A stretch of 60,422 nt of DNA, the filler included, from Globobulimina sp. (taxonomy: Eukaryota), in NCBI GenBank assembly GCA_003354225.1. It is 14 parts of 14 records of this genome, joined end to end, with 100 filler letters (N's around TTAATTAATTAA, not from the genome) between each part and the next. Parts side by side here need not be neighbours in the genome. Positions count along the whole stretch, not along the records: positions 47,566 to 51,785 come from PIVH01001453.1; positions 51,886 to 56,104 come from PIVH01001454.1; 12 more parts are not named here. One strand, written 5' to 3'. Positions 13,937-60,422 of this stretch are shown piece after piece (positions within the stretch are counted from its first letter, which is position 1; each line of letters begins with the position of its first letter). The notes beneath the pieces were generated by a model. It searched no databases. It was not told the DNA's origin and worked only from the letters and a program-made list of their open reading frames with translations. The position numbers were made by a program, and so were the translations under genes.

Positions 13937-16753
13937 TTACAATTCTGACTTGACATCATTTGCCTCTTTTTGCGATGCAAATTCAATTTCGAATGGTTGA
14001 TCTATCTTTAATTTTAAGTGTTGTATCTTTAATACATTGAATTTCGAATCATAAACAATATCTACATATTGTTCATCATTTATATTAACAACGATATTTC
14101 CATTTCCATTTTCTTTTTGCATTCCAAATATTACAATTTCGTCCAATAAACCATTATTAAGATTTGTATTATCAAATAAATTATGGTTTACATTATTTCT
14201 TAATGTACAATTACGCATATCTTTTGATATAAAATTAAATTCAATAAAATCAAATATTTGCTTCTTTTTATAGTTATGTGAAATACCATCATCAATAAAT
14301 ATATCACCTTTTGCATTGTACTCCAAATCTAAAGCAACTAATAATTTATATGGTTTTTGTCGGGCATCATACGTCGTCAATGAACCATTTAACGCATTCT
14401 GTAAAACAATAATAGAACCACCACGTATATGAATATTTGTGTTTTCTAATGGCGTATAAATATTATTCCAACCATTATTTACAATTTCTTTTCCATTTTC
14501 AAGCTGAAACCATCTTTCCTTCATATTTGATTTCGGATTTATTGCTGGAAAATATGCATTGACATTTTGCTGTCCTTTATATAAAGCGGGCGAAAATAAT
14601 AAACTCTCACTCCATAAATATTGTTCATTGATATCATAAGTATTATTGTCGTCGTACCATATCATAAATAGTCCGTTTATTACATTGCCACCAAATTGAG
14701 TTGCTTTATAAAATAAAGTATATAAATGAGGCAGTAATTGATATCGAAGGGTTAAATATTTGCGATGAATAAACACAACGGTTTGCCCCAAAGATGGTGG
14801 ATCCTGATCTCGTGTACTAAATTCACTGCGAATCGCATTGTGATTCCTAGCAAATGGATAAAATGCACCAACTTCAATCCATCGACTGCATAATTCAACG
14901 GTCGTATTCCCCAAAAATCCGCAAATATCGGCTCCATTCATTGGCATTGCGAACATGGAAAACATTATCATTCCGCTGATGGATTGTTTTAAATGTTGGT
15001 AATCTGCATGATTGTCACCATGCCAATGACCACCATATTTACCGGCGGATGTATAGGTTGACCGGGAGATTATGAATGGTCTCTCATTCTCATTTATGGC
15101 CAATAATGCTTTATATGTTGCAGCCATCATCGAATAGCCATATAAAGAATGAACGTTATAATGTTTGGTATAACCATTGTCATTGCCATATTTCTGTTGC
15201 GTATTCATGCAAATGGTATGTTGGCCATTAGCAAATGGATCCGGATCATCCATGTCTTGGCTATTAATATACGATTTTAATTGCATTGGAAAATATGGTG
15301 GCGAATCATATTTATTTTGAGTGCATGTATCACCGCCAAAATTCGATGGTTCATTCATATCAATCCAAATGCCATCAAATTTAATCATATCATGCCATTG
15401 TTTGGTTTGATTGGTCCACCAATTTATTGTATCCTCATTAAAAAAATCAGGAAATACTGTACCGCCGGGCCAAACTGCTCCGATATATGCTGTTCCATTT
15501 TCATTTGAAATAAATACATTATTTGCCATTCCATCGTCATATGTATGATATGGACGATTTGCTGACGAATTGGTTGAAATGCCACAATCAATGATTTGTA
15601 TAAATCGCATATGATATTGTTTATGCAATACATTGTCAATAAATTGTGGTAAATGTTCGAATTCATTGGTATTATATGTAAATATCTTATAATCATCCAT
15701 GTAATCAATATCTAGCCATTGTGTATCATACGGAATCATTTCAGCGCGCATTGACTCAACAATTTGTTTTGTTGCATTCAGATTTAAATATCCCCAGCGA
15801 CATAAATGAAAACCAAACGACCAATAAGGTGGAAAAAATGGGAAACCCACAACTGAATAAAATTGATACAACACATCTAATGGTTTTGGACCGAAAAAGA
15901 TGTAAAAATCTAAGATGCCGCCAATTGTTCGGAATTGTAATATTGGATTTGGTCCGTTTGGATGGGTCAAAACAATTTGCATTGCATTGCTATTTATAAA
16001 TAATAATCCAAAAGAATCGCCAGAATGGCCATTCATAAATAAACCAAATGGATGGACACCATAACCACTGCTGAATGATGGGTATTTATTCCAAATGTCT
16101 CGTGAAAATAAAGAGATTGTTGTATTTAATGGAATTAATATGTCACTAAATCTCTCTCCAAAGCCATAGACTTTGCTATAATTTGTAATTGACATTGAAA
16201 ATTGAATAAATTGATCGCTATAAATAAAGCCTGGTACGGCTGTATTAATTATTGCTGATAAGTCATGATCGGACATTCGATAAATTTGCATTCCAAACAT
16301 ATTATTTTCAGCGTTGTTGAAATTTATTCCATATTTTGGATTTGCTGCAGATATGGAGGGAATTGGTGGTAAATCAATGGGTACTTCATAGCGATTGTTT
16401 TTATTCTCTTCATCCCTAAATTTAATATGTAACCGAGATTCTGTTTCTTGATAAATATCGACTCTCACTGAAGGTATCGAATCAGTATCATAATAGGTTG
16501 GGTAACGTTGACTTATTAATGCTGTATATCCGTTTGCTGTTGGTTCAATACTTCCATTTACAAAATAACCATAATCTGATGGATAATAACAATTTGGAGT
16601 TGTTGTCTCATGCCATAAACATCTTCTTTCTTCACAACTCGTTTTTGATATATTTATTCCTTCTGGAAAACAATCTAATTGAGGAATAGATGATGAATAA
16701 CCTGCATGTACATTACATGTTAAATACAACAAAACAAACAGCAGATGTGTCAT
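13937..16753 (-). CDS. GH31 alpha-glucosidase (lysosomal acid glucosidase/maltase type) with signal peptide and trefoil domain
   Basis: WIDMNE nucleophile motif, HWHGDN acid/base, GADICGF, FYPFARNHN; N-terminal Cys-rich trefoil-like segment. Confidence 0.95.
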   Translation of the reverse strand: MTHLLFVLLYLTCNVHAGYSSSIPQLDCFPEGINISKTSCEERRCLWHETTTPNCYYPSDYGYFVNGSIEPTANGYTALISQRYPTYYDTDSIPSVRVDIYQETESRLHIKFRDEENKNNRYEVPIDLPPIPSISAANPKYGINFNNAENNMFGMQIYRMSDHDLSAIINTAVPGFIYSDQFIQFSMSITNYSKVYGFGERFSDILIPLNTTISLFSRDIWNKYPSFSSGYGVHPFGLFMNGHSGDSFGLLFINSNAMQIVLTHPNGPNPILQFRTIGGILDFYIFFGPKPLDVLYQFYSVVGFPFFPPYWSFGFHLCRWGYLNLNATKQIVESMRAEMIPYDTQWLDIDYMDDYKIFTYNTNEFEHLPQFIDNVLHKQYHMRFIQIIDCGISTNSSANRPYHTYDDGMANNVFISNENGTAYIGAVWPGGTVFPDFFNEDTINWWTNQTKQWHDMIKFDGIWIDMNEPSNFGGDTCTQNKYDSPPYFPMQLKSYINSQDMDDPDPFANGQHTICMNTQQKYGNDNGYTKHYNVHSLYGYSMMAATYKALLAINENERPFIISRSTYTSAGKYGGHWHGDNHADYQHLKQSISGMIMFSMFAMPMNGADICGFLGNTTVELCSRWIEVGAFYPFARNHNAIRSEFSTRDQDPPSLGQTVVFIHRKYLTLRYQLLPHLYTLFYKATQFGGNVINGLFMIWYDDNNTYDINEQYLWSESLLFSPALYKGQQNVNAYFPAINPKSNMKERWFQLENGKEIVNNGWNNIYTPLENTNIHIRGGSIIVLQNALNGSLTTYDARQKPYKLLVALDLEYNAKGDIFIDDGISHNYKKKQIFDFIEFNFISKDMRNCTLRNNVNHNLFDNTNLNNGLLDEIVIFGMQKENGNGNIVVNINDEQYVDIVYDSKFNVLKIQHLKLKIDQPFEIEFASQKEANDVKSEL

Positions 16754-16944
16754 TGTACGCAAGCAAGTTTTTTGCTTTTTTTAAGATAATACAAATTTAT
16801 ACGCTCGTTACAAACAAATGCAAATATCAGTTTGTACTTTGCCCCGTTCTTATCGTCAGAGGGTACTGTTTCTGAACAAAAATATAAAATAAATTAAATC
16901 ACAAAAAAACAACATTCAATCACAAAATTAAAACATATTCATTT

Positions 16945-31516: not shown

Positions 31517-32617
31517 TTAGGCGTTAAGATTTTGCAATATTTGTAAAATCAATTGTTTTGTATCTTCATTTGGATTGACTTTCTGTAAATTCCTGATCTG
31601 ACTATGTAATAATTCCTGGTTAGATTCTAAATCATCAATACGTTTTTCCTTTTCTTCTAGCTCTGTGATTTCTTTTTGTTGTTTTTCAATCAGTAATCTC
31701 TGGCGTTCTGTAGGATCTACAGTAAGCTCAGTAATTGACTTTACAAATTCTGTAAAACATTCCTCCCTGGTTGGTTGAAGATAAACACCATCAAGGCCCC
31801 TTTTGTGAGCCATTAATTTTTCTGCAATATTGGAATTAATGTCATTGTCAATTTTCAAAATCGTATTGAATCTTTTCCTAAATCCATAGAATAATGCCTT
31901 GTCAAATCTGTGGCCTACCTTAGTTCTTACAATACCAGAATTTTCTACTACTGTTTCCATTAATTTTCTAACAGCTCTATATGGAATCGGTTTTCCTTTT
32001 GATATGAATAATGGTGAGTCATTTGTTAGAAATTCGCCATTTTCTTTTCTATCTTTGATATAGTCATCAAATGCCTCTACACATTCAGGAGTCCAAAAGG
32101 TCCAATATTCCTCTTTAGATCCTTTGTAGATTAGAACAGCTTTGCAGCCATGTTGCATATCTACAATATCACCCAATGTCAGTATTGGATCATGTAAGGC
32201 ATTAGGCCTGCCACCAGTTGATACAAAGAGATGGATCAAAAATTTTGTCTTAAGGTTGGTAGTGGATTTTAACATTTTTAGGATTTCTTCAGTAGTGTAT
32301 GGCTTGTTTCCCCCTGCTTTTTTGTTGTTAGCTGGTAGCATACGCCTGATAATCTTCTTTGGATATAGAATCTCATTCATATCCAGGAATAGCTCTATGG
32401 CTGAAAGATAGCTGTTACAACTAGGATAAGTCAAATGATTAATTGATTGCACGTATTTTGCGAGTAAATCCTTGATTTCTTCATAAGTCATTTTCTTAAA
32501 CTCATTGTATTCTGTTACACCTGAAAATTCTCTAAATTTTTCAAGAGCTCGGGTATAGTTTATTTTAGTGGCATCTGTCTTTATTGCAGCTAGAAAGTTA
32601 TCATAACAAGTTTCCAT
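31517..32617 (-). CDS. int: Tyrosine recombinase/integrase with C-terminal coiled coil
   Basis: STGGRPNAL (R), YKGSK (K), YGFRKRF (HxxR with H to Y), LMAH...LDGVY (H, Y); N-terminal SAM-like core-binding region. Confidence 0.9.
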   Translation of the reverse strand: METCYDNFLAAIKTDATKINYTRALEKFREFSGVTEYNEFKKMTYEEIKDLLAKYVQSINHLTYPSCNSYLSAIELFLDMNEILYPKKIIRRMLPANNKKAGGNKPYTTEEILKMLKSTTNLKTKFLIHLFVSTGGRPNALHDPILTLGDIVDMQHGCKAVLIYKGSKEEYWTFWTPECVEAFDDYIKDRKENGEFLTNDSPLFISKGKPIPYRAVRKLMETVVENSGIVRTKVGHRFDKALFYGFRKRFNTILKIDNDINSNIAEKLMAHKRGLDGVYLQPTREECFTEFVKSITELTVDPTERQRLLIEKQQKEITELEEKEKRIDDLESNQELLHSQIRNLQKVNPNEDTKQLILQILQNLNA

Positions 32618-32644
32618 GGTATTCTATTATTTTACTTACTATTA

Positions 32645-50720: not shown

Positions 50721-52184
50721 TGAATATGATATGATATTATATTAAGTTTATATACATAATTATTTTGATGAAAGGTTTGTCATTTTTTTTGCAGAATATA
50801 GCAAATTAGATATCATAGATATTTACTAAACAAAACATCCTTCGCCTGTTTGGGCGTCCAATGTATTGAATAAAACAAATGATAGTATGGATAAACATGT
50901 GATTTGAGAACCCATGTATGTCTGCTTTGTGTTTTGATTGTTTTTGAGTGGGAAGTAAAGGTTGCACTGAAACAAATGATATTTGTGAAAAATAGCCATT
51001 GAAATAATACATTAAAAACAAAAATGCCCAGAATCGAATTAAGTTTATTCTGTCATTACAACAACGCGGTGCTTTATTCTTTGTAATGTATAAATATCCA
51101 ACAAACATTGAATGAATAGCAACAAATACACCTCTTCCAATTAAATATTCCCGACCAAGAAATACATCCACTTTGAAGAATCGTCCATTTTTGTACGTGA
51201 ACAAAATAAATGACAACCAATGCACAGGAAATGTATCACCACAACAAATACCATTACAAATGGTAGTACCCCATCAATACCAACATGTCATGTGCATGCA
51301 AATCAAACTCAGCTTCTTCGTCTGTTCAGTCCGGCAGTAGGGATGACCACACTGACAGTTTCGTCATTTTTATGATAATAAACTCAATTTTGATAATTGA
51401 CATTCTTTGCATGTAAACAAATTTTGATGGCGGTAAACAATAAGTATAAATCCGGTGTTATTGCGCTAATAATAATATGTGATGATAGCTTAAAGAAAGC
51501 AGCTTATGAACATGATTTGGGTTCAAATCCCAATCATCACTTTTATTATTTTTATTTTTATTTTATTCTAAAGCAGTTGATAAAAACAACAAAAATTCAA
51601 ATGTCACTTTTTTTTTTTTATCTTCATTTAAATTTTACAAATTATTATTCGTGTTTCGTTCCATCCAGGATACATTTCAAGAATTTCTTCATCCGTATCA
51701 AAATAATTTGAATTAAATAATAATGGTTCCTCAATATTTGATGGCGGATTGGCATCACGAACATGTAAACATTGATTATATTCATNNNNNNNNNNNNNNN
51801 NNNNNNNNNNNNNNNNNNNNNNNNNNNNNTTAATTAATTAANNNNNNNNNNNNNNNNNNNNNNNNNNNNNNNNNNNNNNNNNNNNGGTTTAAAAGCAATC
51901 TCAAAAACAACAGGCGATTTTAGACAAAAAAGCAAAAAAAAAGCAAACAGAAATCACAGATATAGCCATTGGACGTCGTGTGGAGCATATTGGGATTGAT
52001 TAAAATTGGATTTAAAATTAAAAAAATCAACATTCACCTCAAAACCATTGCAATCACCATTAATAATCCTAACAATAAAATCAAAACGTATATTCATTAT
52101 TATATTTCCATTTTAGTGTTACTCTTAAAGTTTTTGATTTTTATAATCAAAACTTCAAGCTTTTTCTTTTCGCCTTTACAATAA

Positions 52185-52223
52185 AAGTGTGAATCAGTCC
52201 AAATTGGACGAAACTAGTCACTT
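52185..52223 (+). ncRNA. Minimal type I hammerhead ribozyme candidate with variant core
   Basis: AAGT-GTGAATCA-GTCCA(AAT)TGGAC-GAA-ACTAGT-C-ACTT gives stem I, core, stem II, GAAA, palindromic stem III and a GUC cleavage triplet. Confidence 0.65.
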
Positions 52224-52467
52224 ATTTAATAAATTTAATTGTTTTATTATTCCGTTGCTGAGTGATATCTCGTAGCCAAACTTGATCCCTACTTTCGTAT
52301 ATCTACCCGTGTTGGTTTACGCCTCCCCTCTTATCCATTCGTTGGAAATTACCTCAACAATTACTATTTGGAATTTACATTTCAAATTACCTGAATCATC
52401 AAAGATTTAACCATCAAATTAACTACCTTTGAATTTTAAACATTTTTAAATTTCATTGTCATCAAAC

Positions 52468-53733
52468 ATGTACAAAATACAATTTAATCAAAACAGAAAT
52501 AACAACAACAACAACAACAAAAATAATAATAATGATAATGAGCAAATTCAAGAAATTGATATTTTACGTGAATTGCCACGAAAACGTTCGAGGCAAACAT
52601 TTGCATCAAATCAAATTCATACAAATCCGGCTCAGTTATCCAATGAAAATACAATTATTATTGATAAATTCAAGCAATTTTTAGAGCGCGATATTGTTAT
52701 TAATGACAAATTAATCGACAACAAATTGCATCCAATTTTACAAGTCGCCATGAAATATATTTCGAAATTTCAAGCTAAGCGCGTAGCCGCCGTCAAATAT
52801 GTCGATAAAATATCAAATGCCCTCAATACGCATACTGTGGAAAATGCGTTTAAAGGCAAATACGATAAATATCCATACTGGACAAGCTTTAAAAACAACA
52901 GATTCCAATTATCGCATCCTTTGATACAAGAAAAATTGAACAAGGCATTACATAAAATGAACTATGATCAAAATATCGAAGTATTAAAAGTTGTGCAATC
53001 TCATTTATTCGAAATTAATACCGTTTATATGGGAGATTTAAAAGTAATTATAAATCACGCCATTAATGAGCTGAAAAAATGGTGTTGGTTACAATGCGAA
53101 TTCTCGACACAGAAAAAAACGCATAATTACTCTATTAATGTCTCCTTAGACGATGACGATCAGTCAATCATTGATAATCATATGAAAAATAAATATGGTG
53201 ATACTTATCAATTGAATCAAAAGCGTATGTTTTTAGAGAATGTAAGCAATAATATTCAATTTCATATGAATAAAAACAGTGATATTTACATTAATCCTTC
53301 GATTGACCCAATTTACATTAAAGGCGCAAACAATTTAATTAAATTCAAAAATAATAACAATAAAAAAGATCCTCTCAAAAAACATCCAGTCAAAAACCGT
53401 AAACCGAAGAAAAACAAATACAAAAACAACCAGAATTATAATAATAAAAATAATAAATTTGGTAAAAACACAAAAAACATTTTTACTAAAAATTTCAAAA
53501 ACGGTAAAAATGGTAAAAACGGCAGAAACGGTAAAAACGGTAAAAACAAGAAATCATTCAAAAATAAAAAACATTTCAGTGAATTGTCCGACAAACAGAA
53601 ATTCGGAAATTATAACATGGATTTTATTAATTTAGCACCGTCATTACGTCCATTAGGCATTCGCTTAAATGATAACTCCGAAAATGTAATCATTGAATCG
53701 CAATCCGATGATGATATGTCGAACAATCCATGA
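52468..53733 (+). CDS. Retroelement ORF1 with a helical region and a K/N-rich basic tail with (NGK)n repeats
   Basis: 421-aa ORF from the first ATG; same frame as the RT, separated by one TGA. Confidence 0.7.
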   Translation: MYKIQFNQNRNNNNNNNKNNNNDNEQIQEIDILRELPRKRSRQTFASNQIHTNPAQLSNENTIIIDKFKQFLERDIVINDKLIDNKLHPILQVAMKYISKFQAKRVAAVKYVDKISNALNTHTVENAFKGKYDKYPYWTSFKNNRFQLSHPLIQEKLNKALHKMNYDQNIEVLKVVQSHLFEINTVYMGDLKVIINHAINELKKWCWLQCEFSTQKKTHNYSINVSLDDDDQSIIDNHMKNKYGDTYQLNQKRMFLENVSNNIQFHMNKNSDIYINPSIDPIYIKGANNLIKFKNNNNKKDPLKKHPVKNRKPKKNKYKNNQNYNNKNNKFGKNTKNIFTKNFKNGKNGKNGRNGKNGKNKKSFKNKKHFSELSDKQKFGNYNMDFINLAPSLRPLGIRLNDNSENVIIESQSDDDMSNNP

Positions 53734-55809
53734 CAATCAAACCATGTTCGTTTGTCAAGATCCGGATTATATAAATCACGGACTCCTCCTCCTCAATCTC
53801 GTAATAAATACAAGGAATACAGAAAAATGAAGCGCGTGTTTCCTAAATCTGTATTTAACAAAACCGAGTATCAAACAATTCCGTACATTGTAAAGGTTAT
53901 AGCTCACAAAGGCCGTGGATACACATTAGATAATCCATGCATTGGTACTTGGGCTAAAAACCTAAAACGCTCAAAAACAAGTTTCAAAGCGAGATTAACC
54001 AAATCATTTAACACAATTTATGATAATAAGAGAAACGCTTTGGATGAACTAAAAAATGCATATAATTTTTTAGACATCAAACTAAAATCACATATTTTTA
54101 ACAAAAAAGCCAAATGGTTTTTTAATAAGAATTATTATGTGATTCGTCAAAATACCACCATCGCAGTACGCGGCTTATTATTTCAGTTAAAAAAGAATAA
54201 ATTTACATTGATTGAATCAGATAAAAAGATGGGAAGTATTTATATCGATATCTGTGTGGTCGATGACGACGTATTAAAGTTTTTAAACAGTAAACAATTT
54301 GTACCAATTTATGCAACGGAACAAGCAATATCTAAACAAATAGCTATTTCGTCAAAATCGCTCATAAATGATCATTATAATCATTTTAAGCATAAATGGA
54401 ACAATGACAGAGTTTTTAATGTCTGGCGCAAAATGTATGACAGTGACAAAGTATTAAATTTGCCGAAAATCCGTCCTATGATGAAACTGCATAAACCGGG
54501 CTGGCGTTTTATTTTTAATCCCGGCAATTTTTATACATTATTTATGTCGTTCGAAGCAGGAAATATTTGCGAAGATATTTTATTACTATTTCAAGAAAAA
54601 AACAATTTGCATATTGTCCTAAATAACTCATTTGAACTCATGAGCTGTTACAAGAAAATCAATAATCAAAATGATAAATTTTTGAATACCGATCGATTTT
54701 TCTATGATTCTGATGTTGTATCAATGTACGATTCAATGATTATTGATCAATGCATTGAAATATTGAATTATATACAAACAAAATTAGATTATAATCAATT
54801 TAAATTTGATTTTTTGATTGACACATTATTCTATTTTAGAGACAATACATACATTAAATACAAAGATTGGATCAGAAAAATGGTGATAGGTTTAGGAACT
54901 GGGAATTCTCATTCCGGTCCTTTAGCAAATCTATGTTTATACGGATATGAAGTTAAGAATTTAAGCGTGTTTTTGCACGCAATCAACGCCGAAACATTTT
55001 GTGATATTACTTTACGTAAACGGTACATCGATGATAAAAAAACTATTATCGATGTCGATGATGATCAATTTGCAGACGACGTTGTAAAATTAGATTATTT
55101 AAACAAAATATCCATTGCTTTAAATGACATATATCCCATTAACTTAGTATTAAAAACCAAATTTGCAAAACGTGCTATTTATTTAGATACATATTCAATT
55201 ATTTGCCATCAAACAAATCGAATCGTATCATTTATGCATGAAAAGCCATTAAATTTGCATATTAATCTACATTTTCATTCAAATAATCCATTTAATCAAA
55301 AAGAAAGTATTTTTTACTCATTTTTATTCAGAAGTATCTGTTTAAATGATAGCGTCGTAAAACATAAAGGTTTTACGAAAAAATTGATAAAAAGAATGAA
55401 AAATAGAGATTTTCCACCTGCCGTTATCAGGAAAATACTCTCAAATCGAAAATTGCCTCAATATATAAATAGAGATAAATACTTAGAAAAATTAGAAAAG
55501 AATAGACTGGAAAAGTATTATCGCAAATTATTAAAAGTATACAATGAAAATATTTGGGGCCAAGAATCTAAGTTTATTAACAACGAAAAATTAGAATATA
55601 TCAACAATTTATACATTGATAATGAAGAAATAGATGACGTAAAAACGGTATATTTTAAAAAAGTATACCAACAGTTATTTGATGACGACAATCGATACAG
55701 AGAAATATTAAAACAATTTAAAGAATATTTGCCATCAGATTTCGCAGAAAATATTAAGTTATCTATCTGCAATCAAACAGGAGATAAATTAATGAGATAT
55801 TTAAACTAA
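53734..55809 (+). CDS. Penelope-like reverse transcriptase
   Basis: ESDKKMG, MKLHKPG, DVVSMYD (A), GLGTGNSHSGPLANL (B), RYIDD (C), YLD, and EKPLN...LHFHSNNP...KESI...R (PLE thumb). Confidence 0.9.
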   Translation, partial: QSNHVRLSRSGLYKSRTPPPQSRNKYKEYRKMKRVFPKSVFNKTEYQTIPYIVKVIAHKGRGYTLDNPCIGTWAKNLKRSKTSFKARLTKSFNTIYDNKRNALDELKNAYNFLDIKLKSHIFNKKAKWFFNKNYYVIRQNTTIAVRGLLFQLKKNKFTLIESDKKMGSIYIDICVVDDDVLKFLNSKQFVPIYATEQAISKQIAISSKSLINDHYNHFKHKWNNDRVFNVWRKMYDSDKVLNLPKIRPMMKLHKPGWRFIFNPGNFYTLFMSFEAGNICEDILLLFQEKNNLHIVLNNSFELMSCYKKINNQNDKFLNTDRFFYDSDVVSMYDSMIIDQCIEILNYIQTKLDYNQFKFDFLIDTLFYFRDNTYIKYKDWIRKMVIGLGTGNSHSGPLANLCLYGYEVKNLSVFLHAINAETFCDITLRKRYIDDKKTIIDVDDDQFADDVVKLDYLNKISIALNDIYPINLVLKTKFAKRAIYLDTYSIICHQTNRIVSFMHEKPLNLHINLHFHSNNPFNQKESIFYSFLFRSICLNDSVVKHKGFTKKLIKRMKNRDFPPAVIRKILSNRKLPQYINRDKYLEKLEKNRLEKYYRKLLKVYNENIWGQESKFINNEKLEYINNLYIDNEEIDDVKTVYFKKVYQQLFDDDNRYREILKQFKEYLPSDFAENIKLSICNQTGDKLMRYLN

Positions 55810-56453
55810 GTTTTTATTTTTTCATTTCTATCTTTATTCTTTTACCTTTTTACTTTCAATTTTGTCTTTTTGACACATTATAAAATTCACTTTTTGTGTC
55901 TTTTTATTTTATAATGAATTGATTAACGAATACCTTTTTTGTTTACAATTTTTATTTATATATTTTTTAATTTGTTTTATAATATATACATAGCAAAAAT
56001 ATCTTTCGTTATTATAAATATTATCAATCATAGTTTTATTATATTTTTATTTTTGTGTTTTGTTTTGATTGGTTATATTTTTTCTTTTATGTTTCCATTT
56101 TAGTNNNNNNNNNNNNNNNNNNNNNNNNNNNNNNNNNNNNNNNNNNNNTTAATTAATTAANNNNNNNNNNNNNNNNNNNNNNNNNNNNNNNNNNNNNNNN
56201 NNNNAAATACAAAGCAAATATATTTTTGCAAGTGACAAAAAAAATATGTAATAAAGCATATTATTTGTATGGATCGATTTTATATTTTTAATTATTAATA
56301 TATAGCGCCGCCATACCAATATTATAAAACTGCAAGTGGTTATCCACCCAGTTACCCATCACCATATTATACATTCTATGAGGTTCAGTATCCATTTTTT
56401 ATACAGTATATAATTACAATTAATTATGTTTCATTGTTTGTAAATATTATAAG

Positions 56454-57389
56454 CCAACACCAAGTCCAACACAAAATCCTATTCCAGCACCAACAAAAAA
56501 TCCCATTCCAGCAACAAAAAATCCTACGCCAGCACCAACACAAAATCCCATTCCAGCACCAACAAAAAATCCTACTCCAGCACCAACATTAACCCCTTCA
56601 TTTGCTCCATCATTATCTCCATCATTATCACCTACTTTGGCTCCCAGTAATGCCCCATCATTATCTCCGCATTCTACACCCACCAATGTACCGAGTATGC
56701 CACCTACAACTCCATCACTCATAAATACGCTCTATTTCCCCACACAAACCCTTGTCGTGACTGCAGCAAATGATATTGCTGTTGATGATGATATTACAAC
56801 TTCGAATTCAGAAAACATGGATCATGTGGAAGGAGATGCATATGGCAATGTTTTGGAAGACTGGATGTTTATTGGCGGTGGAGGACTGTTTGCAATGTTT
56901 TGTCTGTGCTGTATTCTGATTCTCTTGTTTTGTGTGTGTAGGCGTGTAATGTGGAAGAAAAAAATGTCAAAAATTAAGGATTCATATAATGAGACTACGG
57001 AAATGACGAAAGTAGCTTCCATTTCTAATCAAGCCATTCCAGTGCAGAATAATATTGTCAGTGCCTCCCGATCGGCTGAGGGGAACTCGAATGGCACAAT
57101 GAATATAAGCATGGAGGGGGAAGCTGTCAAAAGTATGAATTCCAATCATGTCTCACCCAAATCGAATGATATATTGATGATGCATGTCATGTCAGGATTG
57201 TCAGCGTTGACTCCAATGGGGGTTGATGTATATGACAATGATGGCAATGCCATAACGCATATGGCATCACAGAATACTGATAGTGTGATTGTGGACAAAT
57301 TTCATGATGGGATTAATGATATGATCATAGAATCAAGTGACGAGAATATAGGTTGTGGCGAAGTTACAATTGGTAAAAAACCGCAATGA
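56454..57389 (+). CDS. Type I membrane protein with mucin-like PT/PS stalk, last exon (5' exons upstream)
   Basis: (PAPTKNP)n and (APSLSP)n repeats, a single TM helix followed by RRVMWKKK, and a cytoplasmic tail. Confidence 0.7.
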   Translation, partial: PTPSPTQNPIPAPTKNPIPATKNPTPAPTQNPIPAPTKNPTPAPTLTPSFAPSLSPSLSPTLAPSNAPSLSPHSTPTNVPSMPPTTPSLINTLYFPTQTLVVTAANDIAVDDDITTSNSENMDHVEGDAYGNVLEDWMFIGGGGLFAMFCLCCILILLFCVCRRVMWKKKMSKIKDSYNETTEMTKVASISNQAIPVQNNIVSASRSAEGNSNGTMNISMEGEAVKSMNSNHVSPKSNDILMMHVMSGLSALTPMGVDVYDNDGNAITHMASQNTDSVIVDKFHDGINDMIIESSDENIGCGEVTIGKKPQ

Positions 57390-57780: not shown

Positions 57781-60422
57781 TATACATTAAATAATAATTT
57801 CACTGTCCGCTGCGCCTTCATTGATTTAGGGGACGGCACCGCATTCATTGGCGCATTGAGCGAATACGTAGCATTAAACAATTCGCAATATCCCACAGCA
57901 CCAATATCATCGTGTGCTCTTTTCAAAGACTGTCCGTTCCACGAAAATGACTTACAAACAGGAGAGTCAATATTATTGTACAGATGGTCAAAAAGCAGGA
58001 TTATGGAATACCGCAACCTTTCATTATCACAATCATTTGATAGCAATTCCTATTTATTAGTGACATGCAATAAAAACTTAACTTTGACTGAGGACTATTT
58101 ATTATTGCCATTTAATGACGATTTTGTTAGCCAGAGTTTTGAAGCACATGTCAGCGGCGGCTGTTATCACGTAAAACATGCAAATATTCGAGGCTATGAA
58201 TGCAAGAATGAAAAGGCGAATTTTTGGAATAGCAATCAACATCATTTTCATTTAGATTCTAGCACTTGTTTTTGTGGTGGATGTTGTTCCTGGAACACTG
58301 ATTCTGTTGCATCCGAAGATAATTTTGGATTTTATTGGGTTGCACAGACTAACCCTTTATTTTCATGTACTTCTACACTGACTTCAACCACAGAGTTAAG
58401 TACATAATTAACACATTCTCTTTGTGTGTACAGTATATATTTATCGATTAAGTTATTGGATCGGAAGCATAATAACATTGCAATTGCTTGACATTGCCGG
58501 AATATGTGAGGTATTACCAACCAAATGGTTCACTGCAAACTCATTAAGTTCACCAACGGAATGGATAGATATTATAAATAATAGCGCAGCAATTGGCAGT
58601 GGCTTAAAGCAGGGGAATAAAGATGGCAATGCCTACGTGTACGGCGGCACAGATTCAACATTAAGTTTACCAGTTTCATTAACAACATTTCCAGGCTATA
58701 CTTTGATCCATGTCTGCAAATATAATGGAGCTGCACAAGGAAGAATACTGGAGGCAACTTCTGTGAATTGGCTGTCTGGTTTCCATGTTGAGGGAATAGG
58801 GTTGGCTTTCCACCAAACCACAGCCACTGACTTGTATCACGATGGCTGGTTGGCATGGCACAATGCATCCGACTACAATGTGGACGAATGGCTGATCAGC
58901 ACTGATCAAATTAATATATATCGCGCCAATTTTGAAGTCATTCCGCCACATTGCTGTCCCGCTGGCAATCCGCCATTCGATAAGATATTATATCCGTTCG
59001 CTGATCCGGGACAGATAACAATTAATAACGGATTGCGAGCGAATTTTGGTGAAACATCTGACTGGGCCTGCAGCGAAATCATAATATTTGAAGATATGGA
59101 GCTTGCCACCAATGAGATACAATGTATTGAGGTGTTATTAGCCGAGAAATATGCATCTAATGTCATACCGAGTGTATGCAATGGTTGTTGGAGTGATTAT
59201 TATGATAATGCGGTCTGGTGTGCTGCGAATAGTTTTGGTTGCCATCCCAATGCGTTATTAGATGGTGATTTAAGTACTGCGTGGAATGCGTGTTGGGGCG
59301 CTGGTTGTTGTCTGTATGAAATTGATTGGGTCGTTTTTGATTTTGGCCAGGCGATAAAATTAAAATTATTTGGTTTGTATGCTTACGGCGATGTTACTCA
59401 TGACATTAAAACATTTGAATTGCAGTACAATAGCAACGGATTAGATTCTTTGTCGTGGATTGCACTCAAACAATGGACTGCTGCGAGTGGTGGAGTCGGA
59501 TGGCAGTATTTTGATATTAATATTACTCAACAAACGAATTATTATCAATATTGGAGATTATATATTACCGAAAGATATTCTAAATACCAAACATATTTAA
59601 ATGAGGTTCATTTTCTCACTGAGAATACAACAAATATCATGCCACAGACTTTATGCCCAACATCAGCACCAACCATAGCACCTTCATTAATGCCTTCGTT
59701 GGCTCCTTCTTTAACTCCTTCAATCGCCCCATCATTAGCACCGAGTATTGCTCCCAGCGTAGCTCCCTCATTAACTCCATCCATTGCTCCTTCGTTGACA
59801 CCTACTTTATCGCCATCATTAGCACCATCCAAAGCACCTTCAATTGCACCGTCATTAACTCCTACGCTGTCTCCTTCGTTGGCACCATCTGTATCTCCAA
59901 CCATCAGTCCAAGTTTTGCCCCATCATTGTCACCAAGTATAGCTCCCAGCGTAGCACCATCATTAAGACCAAGTAGTGCACCAACTTTAGCCCCATCATC
60001 AAATCCTAGTTTATCTCCAAGTATTGCACCCAGTTCAGCTCCCACTATCAGTCCAACTTTAGCGCCATCATTATCACCAAGTATAGCTCCCAGCGTAGCA
60101 CCAACATTAGTACCAACCATTGCGCCTTCATTACCTCCATCATTAGCTCCTACACTGTCACCCTCATTGACACCCACTTTAGCTCCAAGTTTAGCTCCCT
60201 CATCAAATCCTACTTTGTCTCCGAGTATCAGTCCAAGTTTAGCACCATCTGTATCACCTACTTTACCACCAACTGCTGCCCCAATTATCGCACCATCAGC
60301 AGCCCCGTCTTTAGCTACAAACACTCCTTCCAATACACCTTCATTTGCTCCGTCTTTAGCACCAAGTATCGCACCATCATCATTAGCACCTTCGTCGGCT
60401 CCTTCTTTCCCCCCAACCACCG
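57781..60422 (+). CDS. Large cell-surface protein with a Cys-containing module, a ConA/LamG-like lectin, an F5/8C discoidin-like domain and an APSLTP mucin stalk; intron 58395-58452; ends unresolved
   Basis: Splice gives STTDYWIG; frame 58454-60422 is open (YTLIHVCKYNG...NWLSGFH; DGDLSTAWN...WVVFDFG...YWRLYI); absent from the ORF track because it has no stop in the window. Confidence 0.7.
59650..60422 (+). repeat. Coding tetrapeptide repeat array [A/T/S]-P-[S/T]-[L/I/V]
   Basis: 12-bp periodicity (GCNCCNTCNTTA-like) over about 770 bp. Confidence 0.9.

Follow-up and report, generated by a model that had tools for sequence, protein, structure and literature searches.

Few known RNA sequences are as strongly conserved as the core of the hammerhead ribozyme, and CUGANGA is what hammerhead searches are built on. 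The locus described here raises the question of whether a natural hammerhead can work with a different core. It lies at 52185-52223 of a window of 60,422 bases, the whole stretch of DNA that was analysed, from the foraminiferan Globobulimina sp. (assembly GCA_003354225.1), in the leader of a Penelope-like element (PLE), and it consists of a hammerhead-type motif with G at position 3 and C at position 8. Descent of this motif from a PLE hammerhead is regarded as highly probable. The fuller reading, in which the motif is a working hammerhead-derived RNA of a foraminiferan nuclease-less PLE, borne in a pseudo-long terminal repeat (pseudo-LTR) and self-cutting after C52219, is held tentatively and, all its parts taken jointly, at slightly less than even confidence; cutting in vivo, considered by itself, is judged a real possibility, at even odds or somewhat less. 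A natural hammerhead-type core with G3:C8 and an 8-nt strand appears to be new, whereas hammerheads in PLEs and G3:C8 cores made in the laboratory are already known.

Structure of the motif

The motif was read in the following parts, all on the plus strand.

52185-52223 (+), whole hammerhead-type motif, 39 bases, read directly in the sequence
52185-52188 (+), stem I, 5' strand AAGU, pairing with 52220-52223
52189-52196 (+), 5' core strand GUGAAUCA, 8 nt, read as G3, U4, G5, A6, an extra base, N7, C8 and A9
52197-52209 (+), stem-loop II, GUCCA / AAU / UGGAC, with arms 52197-52201 and 52205-52209 and loop 52202-52204
52210-52212 (+), G12, A13 and A14 of the 3' core strand, from the sequence and the RF00163 alignment
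52213-52218 (+), ACUAGU, a perfect 6-nt palindrome in the sequence, from A15.1 to U16.1
52219 (+), C17, predicted cut 3' of this base, by hammerhead numbering
52220-52223 (+), stem I, 3' strand ACUU, predicted 5' end of the processed RNA

Stem I comprised 4 bp and stem II 5 bp, with G10.1-C11.1 of stem II closing the core (closing-pair probability in the fold ensemble, 0.998). Both stems were recovered by a single-strand RNA fold (-9.3 kcal/mol, z -2.08), and 10 of 200 shuffled sequences folded equally well. The invariant letters U4, G5 and A6 (52190-52192), A9 (52196), G12, A13 and A14 (52210-52212) and H17 (52219) were all kept, and A15.1 and U16.1 also had the required letters. No helix III hairpin was present, and the ACUAGU palindrome could build helix III only between two copies of the motif. 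The motif was on the sense strand, with the ATG of the first open reading frame (ORF1) of the element, at 52468, 245 nt after it.

A sequence-only reading of the same DNA had described these elements, and they agreed base for base with the sequence at 52185-52223 on the plus strand; its placement of the motif about 250 nt upstream of ORF1 fitted the measured distance and the sense strand of the PLE leader. It had also claimed G3 and C8 in place of C3 and G8 together with one extra base near position 7, and the core departs from the consensus in exactly this way. Its further statement that the full set of PLE minimal-hammerhead elements is there held for the stems, GAAA and the palindrome and failed in one respect. 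An unpaired base between positions 9 and 10.1 is a conserved trait of PLE minimal hammerheads (Cervera and de la Pena 2014, PMC4209133), and here A9 (52196) is directly followed by G10.1 (52197). The extra base between A6 and C8 is either 52193 ('A6a') or 52194, and the single sequence fits either. The motif is classed as a hammerhead variant candidate and not as a family member, because the core consensus failed in letters (G3, C8) and in length.

Two other arrangements of the same bases were rejected. A register that takes A52196 as the bulge typical of PLEs, after position 9, required U8 and C9, two further breaks of the core; a monomeric hammerhead with a long helix III built from downstream sequence offered, by eye, only the 5-bp UCACU/AGUGA and then no stem I. 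There was no CUGANGA site on either strand of the contig (51886-56104), and the only arrangement of core, stem II and GAAA with a paired 3:8 on that contig was the one at 52189-52212, the sole hammerhead candidate there.

Expectation by chance and standard detectors

A relaxed minimal-hammerhead descriptor was composed after the motif had been seen and is therefore post hoc. Its core part consisted of a 4-bp stem I, N3-UGA-N1-2-N8-A with a Watson-Crick 3:8 pair, and a bulge of 0-1 nt after A9, followed by a stem II of 4-8 bp with a loop of 3-8 nt, GAAA, a palindrome of 4, 6 or 8 nt, and H17. Applied to both strands of the window, it returned a single match, which was this motif, and none was returned for sequence simulated with two first-order Markov models, 8 million positions each. 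Without stem I, 42 matches were obtained in 24 million simulated positions, which after multiplication by 0.0078 for the four pairs gave about 1.4e-8 per base per strand; the numbers of matches expected at this rate are 5.7e-5 for the contig strand, 8e-6 for the leader of 582 nt and 1.6e-3 for the window as a whole.

It is very improbable that the motif is a look-alike that arose by chance in AT-rich non-coding DNA, with no hammerhead descent. This explanation draws on the post hoc descriptor, on the hundreds of matches that the same rate would yield over about 250,000 windows of 60 kb if all were of this composition, and on four prokaryotic sites that share the 8-nt core and the letters of stem II and that all looked like chance (see below). 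It is opposed by the small numbers expected on the contig strand and in the leader, by the perfect 6-nt palindrome exactly at the position of helix III, and by the agreement of stem-loop II and GAAAC..GUC with the RF00163 consensus. The main weight against chance is the location, the sense strand of a PLE leader, which is a known place of hammerheads in PLEs (PMC4209133).

The sequence-only reading had expected standard descriptors to miss the motif, and the Rfam searches bore this out. At the gathering score there was no match, and at E<=10 on 51000-53500 there were four matches, none of them a hammerhead; RF00163 (Hammerhead_1) was reached only with lax filters, at a score given below. In that alignment the 5' core was deleted and stem-loop II together with GAAAC..GUC agreed with the consensus almost letter for letter; the 3' two-thirds of the motif agrees with the Rfam type I hammerhead consensus.

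The element carrying the motif

The window was found to be built from 14 contigs of 4218-4228 bases in descending length; 26 N-runs of 44 bases made up 13 joiners of the form N44-TTAATTAATTAA-N44 between them. Since the window is a chain of unrelated contigs, features of neighbouring contigs were not treated as context for the motif. The contig with the motif had a GC content of 27.7% (0.277), the second lowest among the 14, and contained the following features.

51886-56104 (+), motif-bearing contig, 4219 bp, with an N44-TTAATTAATTAA-N44 joiner on either side
52105-52117 (+), 13-nt string that recurs as the contig end, the likely start of a repeat (pseudo-LTR) containing the motif
52468-53733 (+), ORF1, 421 amino acids, intact, no Pfam family, with a basic Lys/Asn/Gly-rich tail
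53731-53733 (+), in-frame TGA (then C) between ORF1 and the ORF2 frame, followed by 31 open codons up to the ORF2 ATG
53827-55809 (+), ORF2, 660 amino acids, intact, Penelope-like reverse transcriptase (RT) with DKKMG and YIDD and without GIY-YIG
56092-56104 (+), contig end, second copy of the 13-nt string, by identity to 52105-52117

Pfam gave no named family for ORF1 or ORF2, and GIY-YIG was not found in ORF2 at E<=1. An exhaustive phmmer search returned 93 relatives of ORF2 at E<=1e-3, the best at 4.7e-126 with 40% identity, and three of the ten closest that were looked up were named proteins, all from the foraminifer Nonionella stella. When 24 of the 93 relatives were scanned with Pfam, the seven closest had no family (nor GIY-YIG), 11 more distant ones had RVT_1 and three had GIY-YIG. 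Aligned by BLASTP with an RT protein carrying GIY-YIG, ORF2 showed 25% identity over 438 residues (E 3e-9), with the RT motifs in register (DKKMG on DKNLG, YIDD on YIDD) and with the alignment stopping before the nuclease domain. A profile of the ORF2 family, compared with a profile of ten RT proteins (RVT_1 in nine of the ten, GIY-YIG in three), matched with a probability of about 100% (E 2e-38, 410 columns). A DKG-type N-terminal motif is named as a feature of PLE RTs (PMC8557442). On the alignments, the motifs and the profile comparison, ORF2 is assigned as a PLE-type RT without GIY-YIG endonuclease, and the element is termed nuclease-less because GIY-YIG was absent from ORF2 and from its seven closest relatives scanned. 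The single-sequence AlphaFold model of ORF2 was uninformative (predicted local distance difference test score, 31.8), sequence searches of the PDB gave no relevant match, and the ESM Atlas offered, as leads only, rotifer clusters with HTH_animal and RVT_1.

In DNA of 28% GC a random codon is a stop with a probability of 0.085, and ORFs of 421 and 660 codons were open, which speaks against a long-dead copy of the element. The same reading frames bear on the suggestion that the assembly gained the extra base by mistake, with the AA of UGAAUC overcalled by one, and that the true core is GUGAUCA, a plain 7-nt G3:C8 swap. The extra base does fall in a run of two, and the draft assembly is fragmented, but the 3249 coding bases, with 650 runs of at least two and 17 runs of at least six, contained no frame break; indel errors are thus rare in this contig, and an overcall precisely here is scarcely probable.

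ORF1 and ORF2 share a frame, and 53731-53826 between them held a single TGA-C and then 31 open codons (chance p about 0.064). From its sequence, the arrangement looks like stop-codon read-through of the gag-pol style, which would give an ORF1-RT fusion.

Probable repeat structure and proposed processing

The last 13 nt of the contig (56092-56104) repeat the string at 52105-52117, which precedes stem I by 68 bases. A suffix match of at least 13 was obtained in none of 3000 simulated contigs, the largest being 12. Upstream of 52105 there was no resemblance to the 3' untranslated region. From the identity with the contig end, the contig probably ends where a second copy of the leader begins, and the motif then probably lies within a pseudo-LTR; the unit 52105-56091 is 3987 bases long, and any 3' copy of the motif would fall beyond the contig. 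The pseudo-LTRs of PLEs carry the hammerhead within the repeat (PMC4209133, PMC8557442); the minimal hammerheads found there have a helix III that is palindromic, and their active form is the dimer (PMC4209133).

In the proposed mechanism, a read-through transcript would contain one copy of the motif before ORF1 and another after the 3' untranslated region, and the two copies would join through the ACUAGU palindrome to form helix III. G3 would pair with C8 in place of the usual C3-G8 pair, the extra base beside position 7 would bulge out, and the RNA would cut itself after C52219, between 52219 and 52220. Cutting at both copies would release a unit RNA of about 3987 nt starting with A52220 and ending with the hammerhead fold, which would fit the description of the hammerhead of nuclease-less PLEs as a fold at the 3' terminus that plays a part in end attachment (PMC6431247). 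Cutting would be expected to be slow, and would probably need the dimer, the protein of the element or both, as published for other PLE hammerheads.

Stem-loop II (52197-52209) is itself nearly palindromic, so two RNAs could also pair through it. The minimum of a two-RNA cofold was this stem-loop II duplex and not helix III, the topology of which the cofold program cannot score; the duplex may, according to the model, be either a competitor of dimer formation or an aid to it. A functional role for the intermolecular stem II duplex was not adopted, as such a cofold minimum is the outcome for any hairpin and is uninformative on function.

Evidence for and against cleavage

In favour of cutting, the motif is intact outside its three core departures, the two altered letters remain able to pair, the element is alive as judged by its ORFs, and no other candidate is present on the contig.

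The points that weigh against a working ribozyme begin with the core itself, in which G at 52189 and C at 52195 break the C3/G8 consensus, though still able to form a Watson-Crick pair, and the 5' strand (52189-52196) has 8 nt as against 7 in CUGANGA. The score against RF00163 was 14.2 bits (E 0.55; gathering score, 34) and was obtained only on a 91-nt stretch with lax filters. In the minimum-energy fold G3 pairs with C17, the base at the cut site (ensemble P 0.90), and this fold lies 3.5 kcal/mol below the hammerhead-competent structure (-9.3 versus -5.8 kcal/mol). One laboratory reports that a G3-C8 variant works less well when position 17 is the natural C than when it is G, the data not being shown (PMC3884650), and G8C lowers the rate about 1e5-fold, with C3G restoring it only partly (PMC8495972). 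Poor activity was measured for a natural hammerhead in which a base is inserted after A6 ('A6a'), the stated reason being that the A6-N7 phosphate contacts U4 (PMC3088659). G3:C8 may be a selected compensatory change, but covariation is beyond the reach of one sequence, and if positions 3 and 8 mutated randomly, about 1 in 3 outcomes would still be Watson-Crick. Moreover, insertion by a PLE in vitro proceeds without hammerhead cutting (PMC11167929), and whole PLE clades thrive without hammerheads, Naiad and Chlamys proliferating without canonical ones (PMC8557442). PLEs are thus able to go without hammerheads or cutting, and an active element may carry a dead ribozyme.

Much of this can be read as a retired hammerhead, a motif of PLE hammerhead descent that has lost its cutting and is either a passenger of an active element or kept as a structure, for example as a 3'-terminal fold recognised by the RT. 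Such a history is a real possibility, judged rather below even. It would account for three departures within the most constrained strand of the core, for the sequestration of G3 by C17 and for the low activity reported with an insertion after A6, and it accords with PLEs that insert or proliferate without cutting and with the end-attachment fold described for nuclease-less PLEs. It accounts less well for the fact that both stems, G10.1-C11.1, UGA, A9, GAAA, the palindrome and H17 are intact and that the changed letters are still Watson-Crick; such intactness is predicted by selection on an active core and not by a merely structural role. Published PLE minimal hammerheads are in any case weak in vitro (PMC4209133), so a weak core is no proof of death.

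Search for further copies and for the same core

The searches for other copies add to the points against a working ribozyme. There was no second copy in the window, and tblastn with ORF1 and ORF2 returned only these ORFs themselves. Many copies per genome, grouped in families with compensatory changes, are characteristic of PLE minimal hammerheads (Cervera and de la Pena 2014, PMC4209133). In searches for related loci, no pattern match was obtained in viral contigs, and none was confirmed among 97 and then 248 pattern matches in metagenome contigs or among 185 in prokaryote contigs. In viral contigs, with a comparison limited to one stem II sequence, none of six matches to a 7-nt G3:C8 core with the same stem II passed the three-helix check, whereas the canonical core with the same stem II gave at least 132 matches in at least 130 loci, and 126 of 132 passed among the matches listed. 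The G3:C8 arrangement is rare at best.

The 8-nt core with GUCC...GGAC had no match in viral contigs. With the GUCC...GGAC hairpin and GAAAC it gave four matches (L001-L004) in prokaryote contigs of metagenome-assembled genomes, about the number expected by chance. All four lay in long open frames and three had U at the free position; none had helices I and III, so the three-helix arrangement was found in none of the four, and none had an Rfam match. These sites were rejected as hammerheads of the same core and read as chance matches. In a word-based protein search, none of the 6933 candidates reached E<=1e-3. Among sequencing runs, no RNA run was listed, and one DNA run contained 0.88 of the sampled words.

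In a wider version of the proposal, G3:C8 with an 8-base core would be the working ribozyme of foraminiferal nuclease-less PLEs as a family, cutting as a dimer or with protein. This is considered unlikely. Were it so, searches relying on CUGANGA would have overlooked a whole type of natural hammerhead, and such cores may be present in PLE lineages that have been recorded as without canonical hammerheads.

Comparison with known cores and elements

Neither a natural G3:C8 core nor a foraminiferal hammerhead was found in print, although published large hammerhead alignments may hold such variants. The motif resembles the minimal hammerheads of PLEs (PMC4209133) in its position on the sense strand upstream of an ORF, its open short stem I, its G10.1-C11.1 pair, the palindrome in place of a helix III hairpin, with the dimer that this would need, and its low expected activity. 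It differs from them in G3...C8, in the 8-nt 5' core and in having no base between 9 and 10.1. It also comes from a foraminiferan host and a nuclease-less element, and yet has no long helix III, with which the hammerheads of protist nuclease-less PLEs are described (PMC4209133).

Natural covariation of the 3:8 pair, from C3-G8 to U3-A8, occurs in bacteria and phages (Perreault et al. 2011, PMC3088659) and in the Cercyon PLEs of Schistosoma (PMC4209133). As in these covariants, some of them in PLEs, the tertiary Watson-Crick pair would be kept here by a change on both sides; they keep a pyrimidine at 3 and a purine at 8, whereas the present motif has a purine at 3 and a pyrimidine at 8, which also creates the G3-C17 competitor. 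The same letters are known from laboratory C3G/G8C double mutants, which regained part of their activity (Martick and Scott 2006 as cited; PMC11167929). In the Anolis PLE hammerhead (PAc), each single mutant kills cutting and the C3G/G8C double mutant partly restores it (Frangieh et al. 2024, PMC11167929); this hammerhead cuts only with the protein of the element (PMC11167929). Those mutants were engineered in a 7-nt core, whereas here the letters are natural and accompanied by an extra base. The natural A6a hammerhead (PMC3088659) shares with the motif one extra base between A6 and position 8, and differs in keeping C3-G8, in its measured poor activity, and in source and context.

The nuclease-less PLEs Athena/Coprina and Terminons (PMC8557442, PMC6431247) are alike in that their RT has no GIY-YIG, an ORF1 lies upstream, and the unit has a hammerhead as its terminal fold. 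In them short reverse-complement telomeric repeats directly follow the hammerhead; here, on a contig of 4.2 kb and with the telomere repeat of the host not identified, no short C-rich repeat was visible after 52223.

A natural and selected G3:C8 core with an extra base, if confirmed, would widen the known natural sequence space of the ribozyme, offer a test made by nature of what the 3:8 pair and the backbone around position 7 contribute, and extend the host range of PLEs with hammerheads to Foraminifera. It would also bear on whether transposition of PLEs requires their hammerheads or whether these are mere passengers. A dead motif would be no more than a decaying ribozyme of the ordinary sort within a retroelement. 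The weight of the finding is limited by its basis in a single copy, and its value hinges on other copies and on cleavage behaviour.

Other features of the window

Several features were recorded elsewhere in the window. On the contig next to that of the motif, 51479-51541 (+) was tRNA-like over 63 bases (Rfam tRNA, 42.7 bits, E 4e-7), with a shortened D region, no ARAGORN call and no appearance in the Rfam gathering-mode scan. At 31517-32623 (-), a 368-amino-acid open frame carried a Phage_integrase (tyrosine recombinase) domain (E 1.2e-10) and may represent a DIRS/Crypton-like element or bacterial DNA within the assembly.

On another contig, 13937-16780 (-) held an uninterrupted GH31 alpha-glucosidase of 947 amino acids with a trefoil domain; its identity with a Nonionella stella protein was 60%, a protein from Bolivina was likewise among the high-ranking matches, and the host is on this ground, too, a foraminiferan. 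Long Ser/Pro/Ala-rich repeat coding sequence, with units of the type APSLAPSIAPS... and periods of 12-36 bases, was present at 59096-60421 (+) and 56447-56722, where the opposite strand was equally open, with a Gly/Ala/Asp-rich frame.

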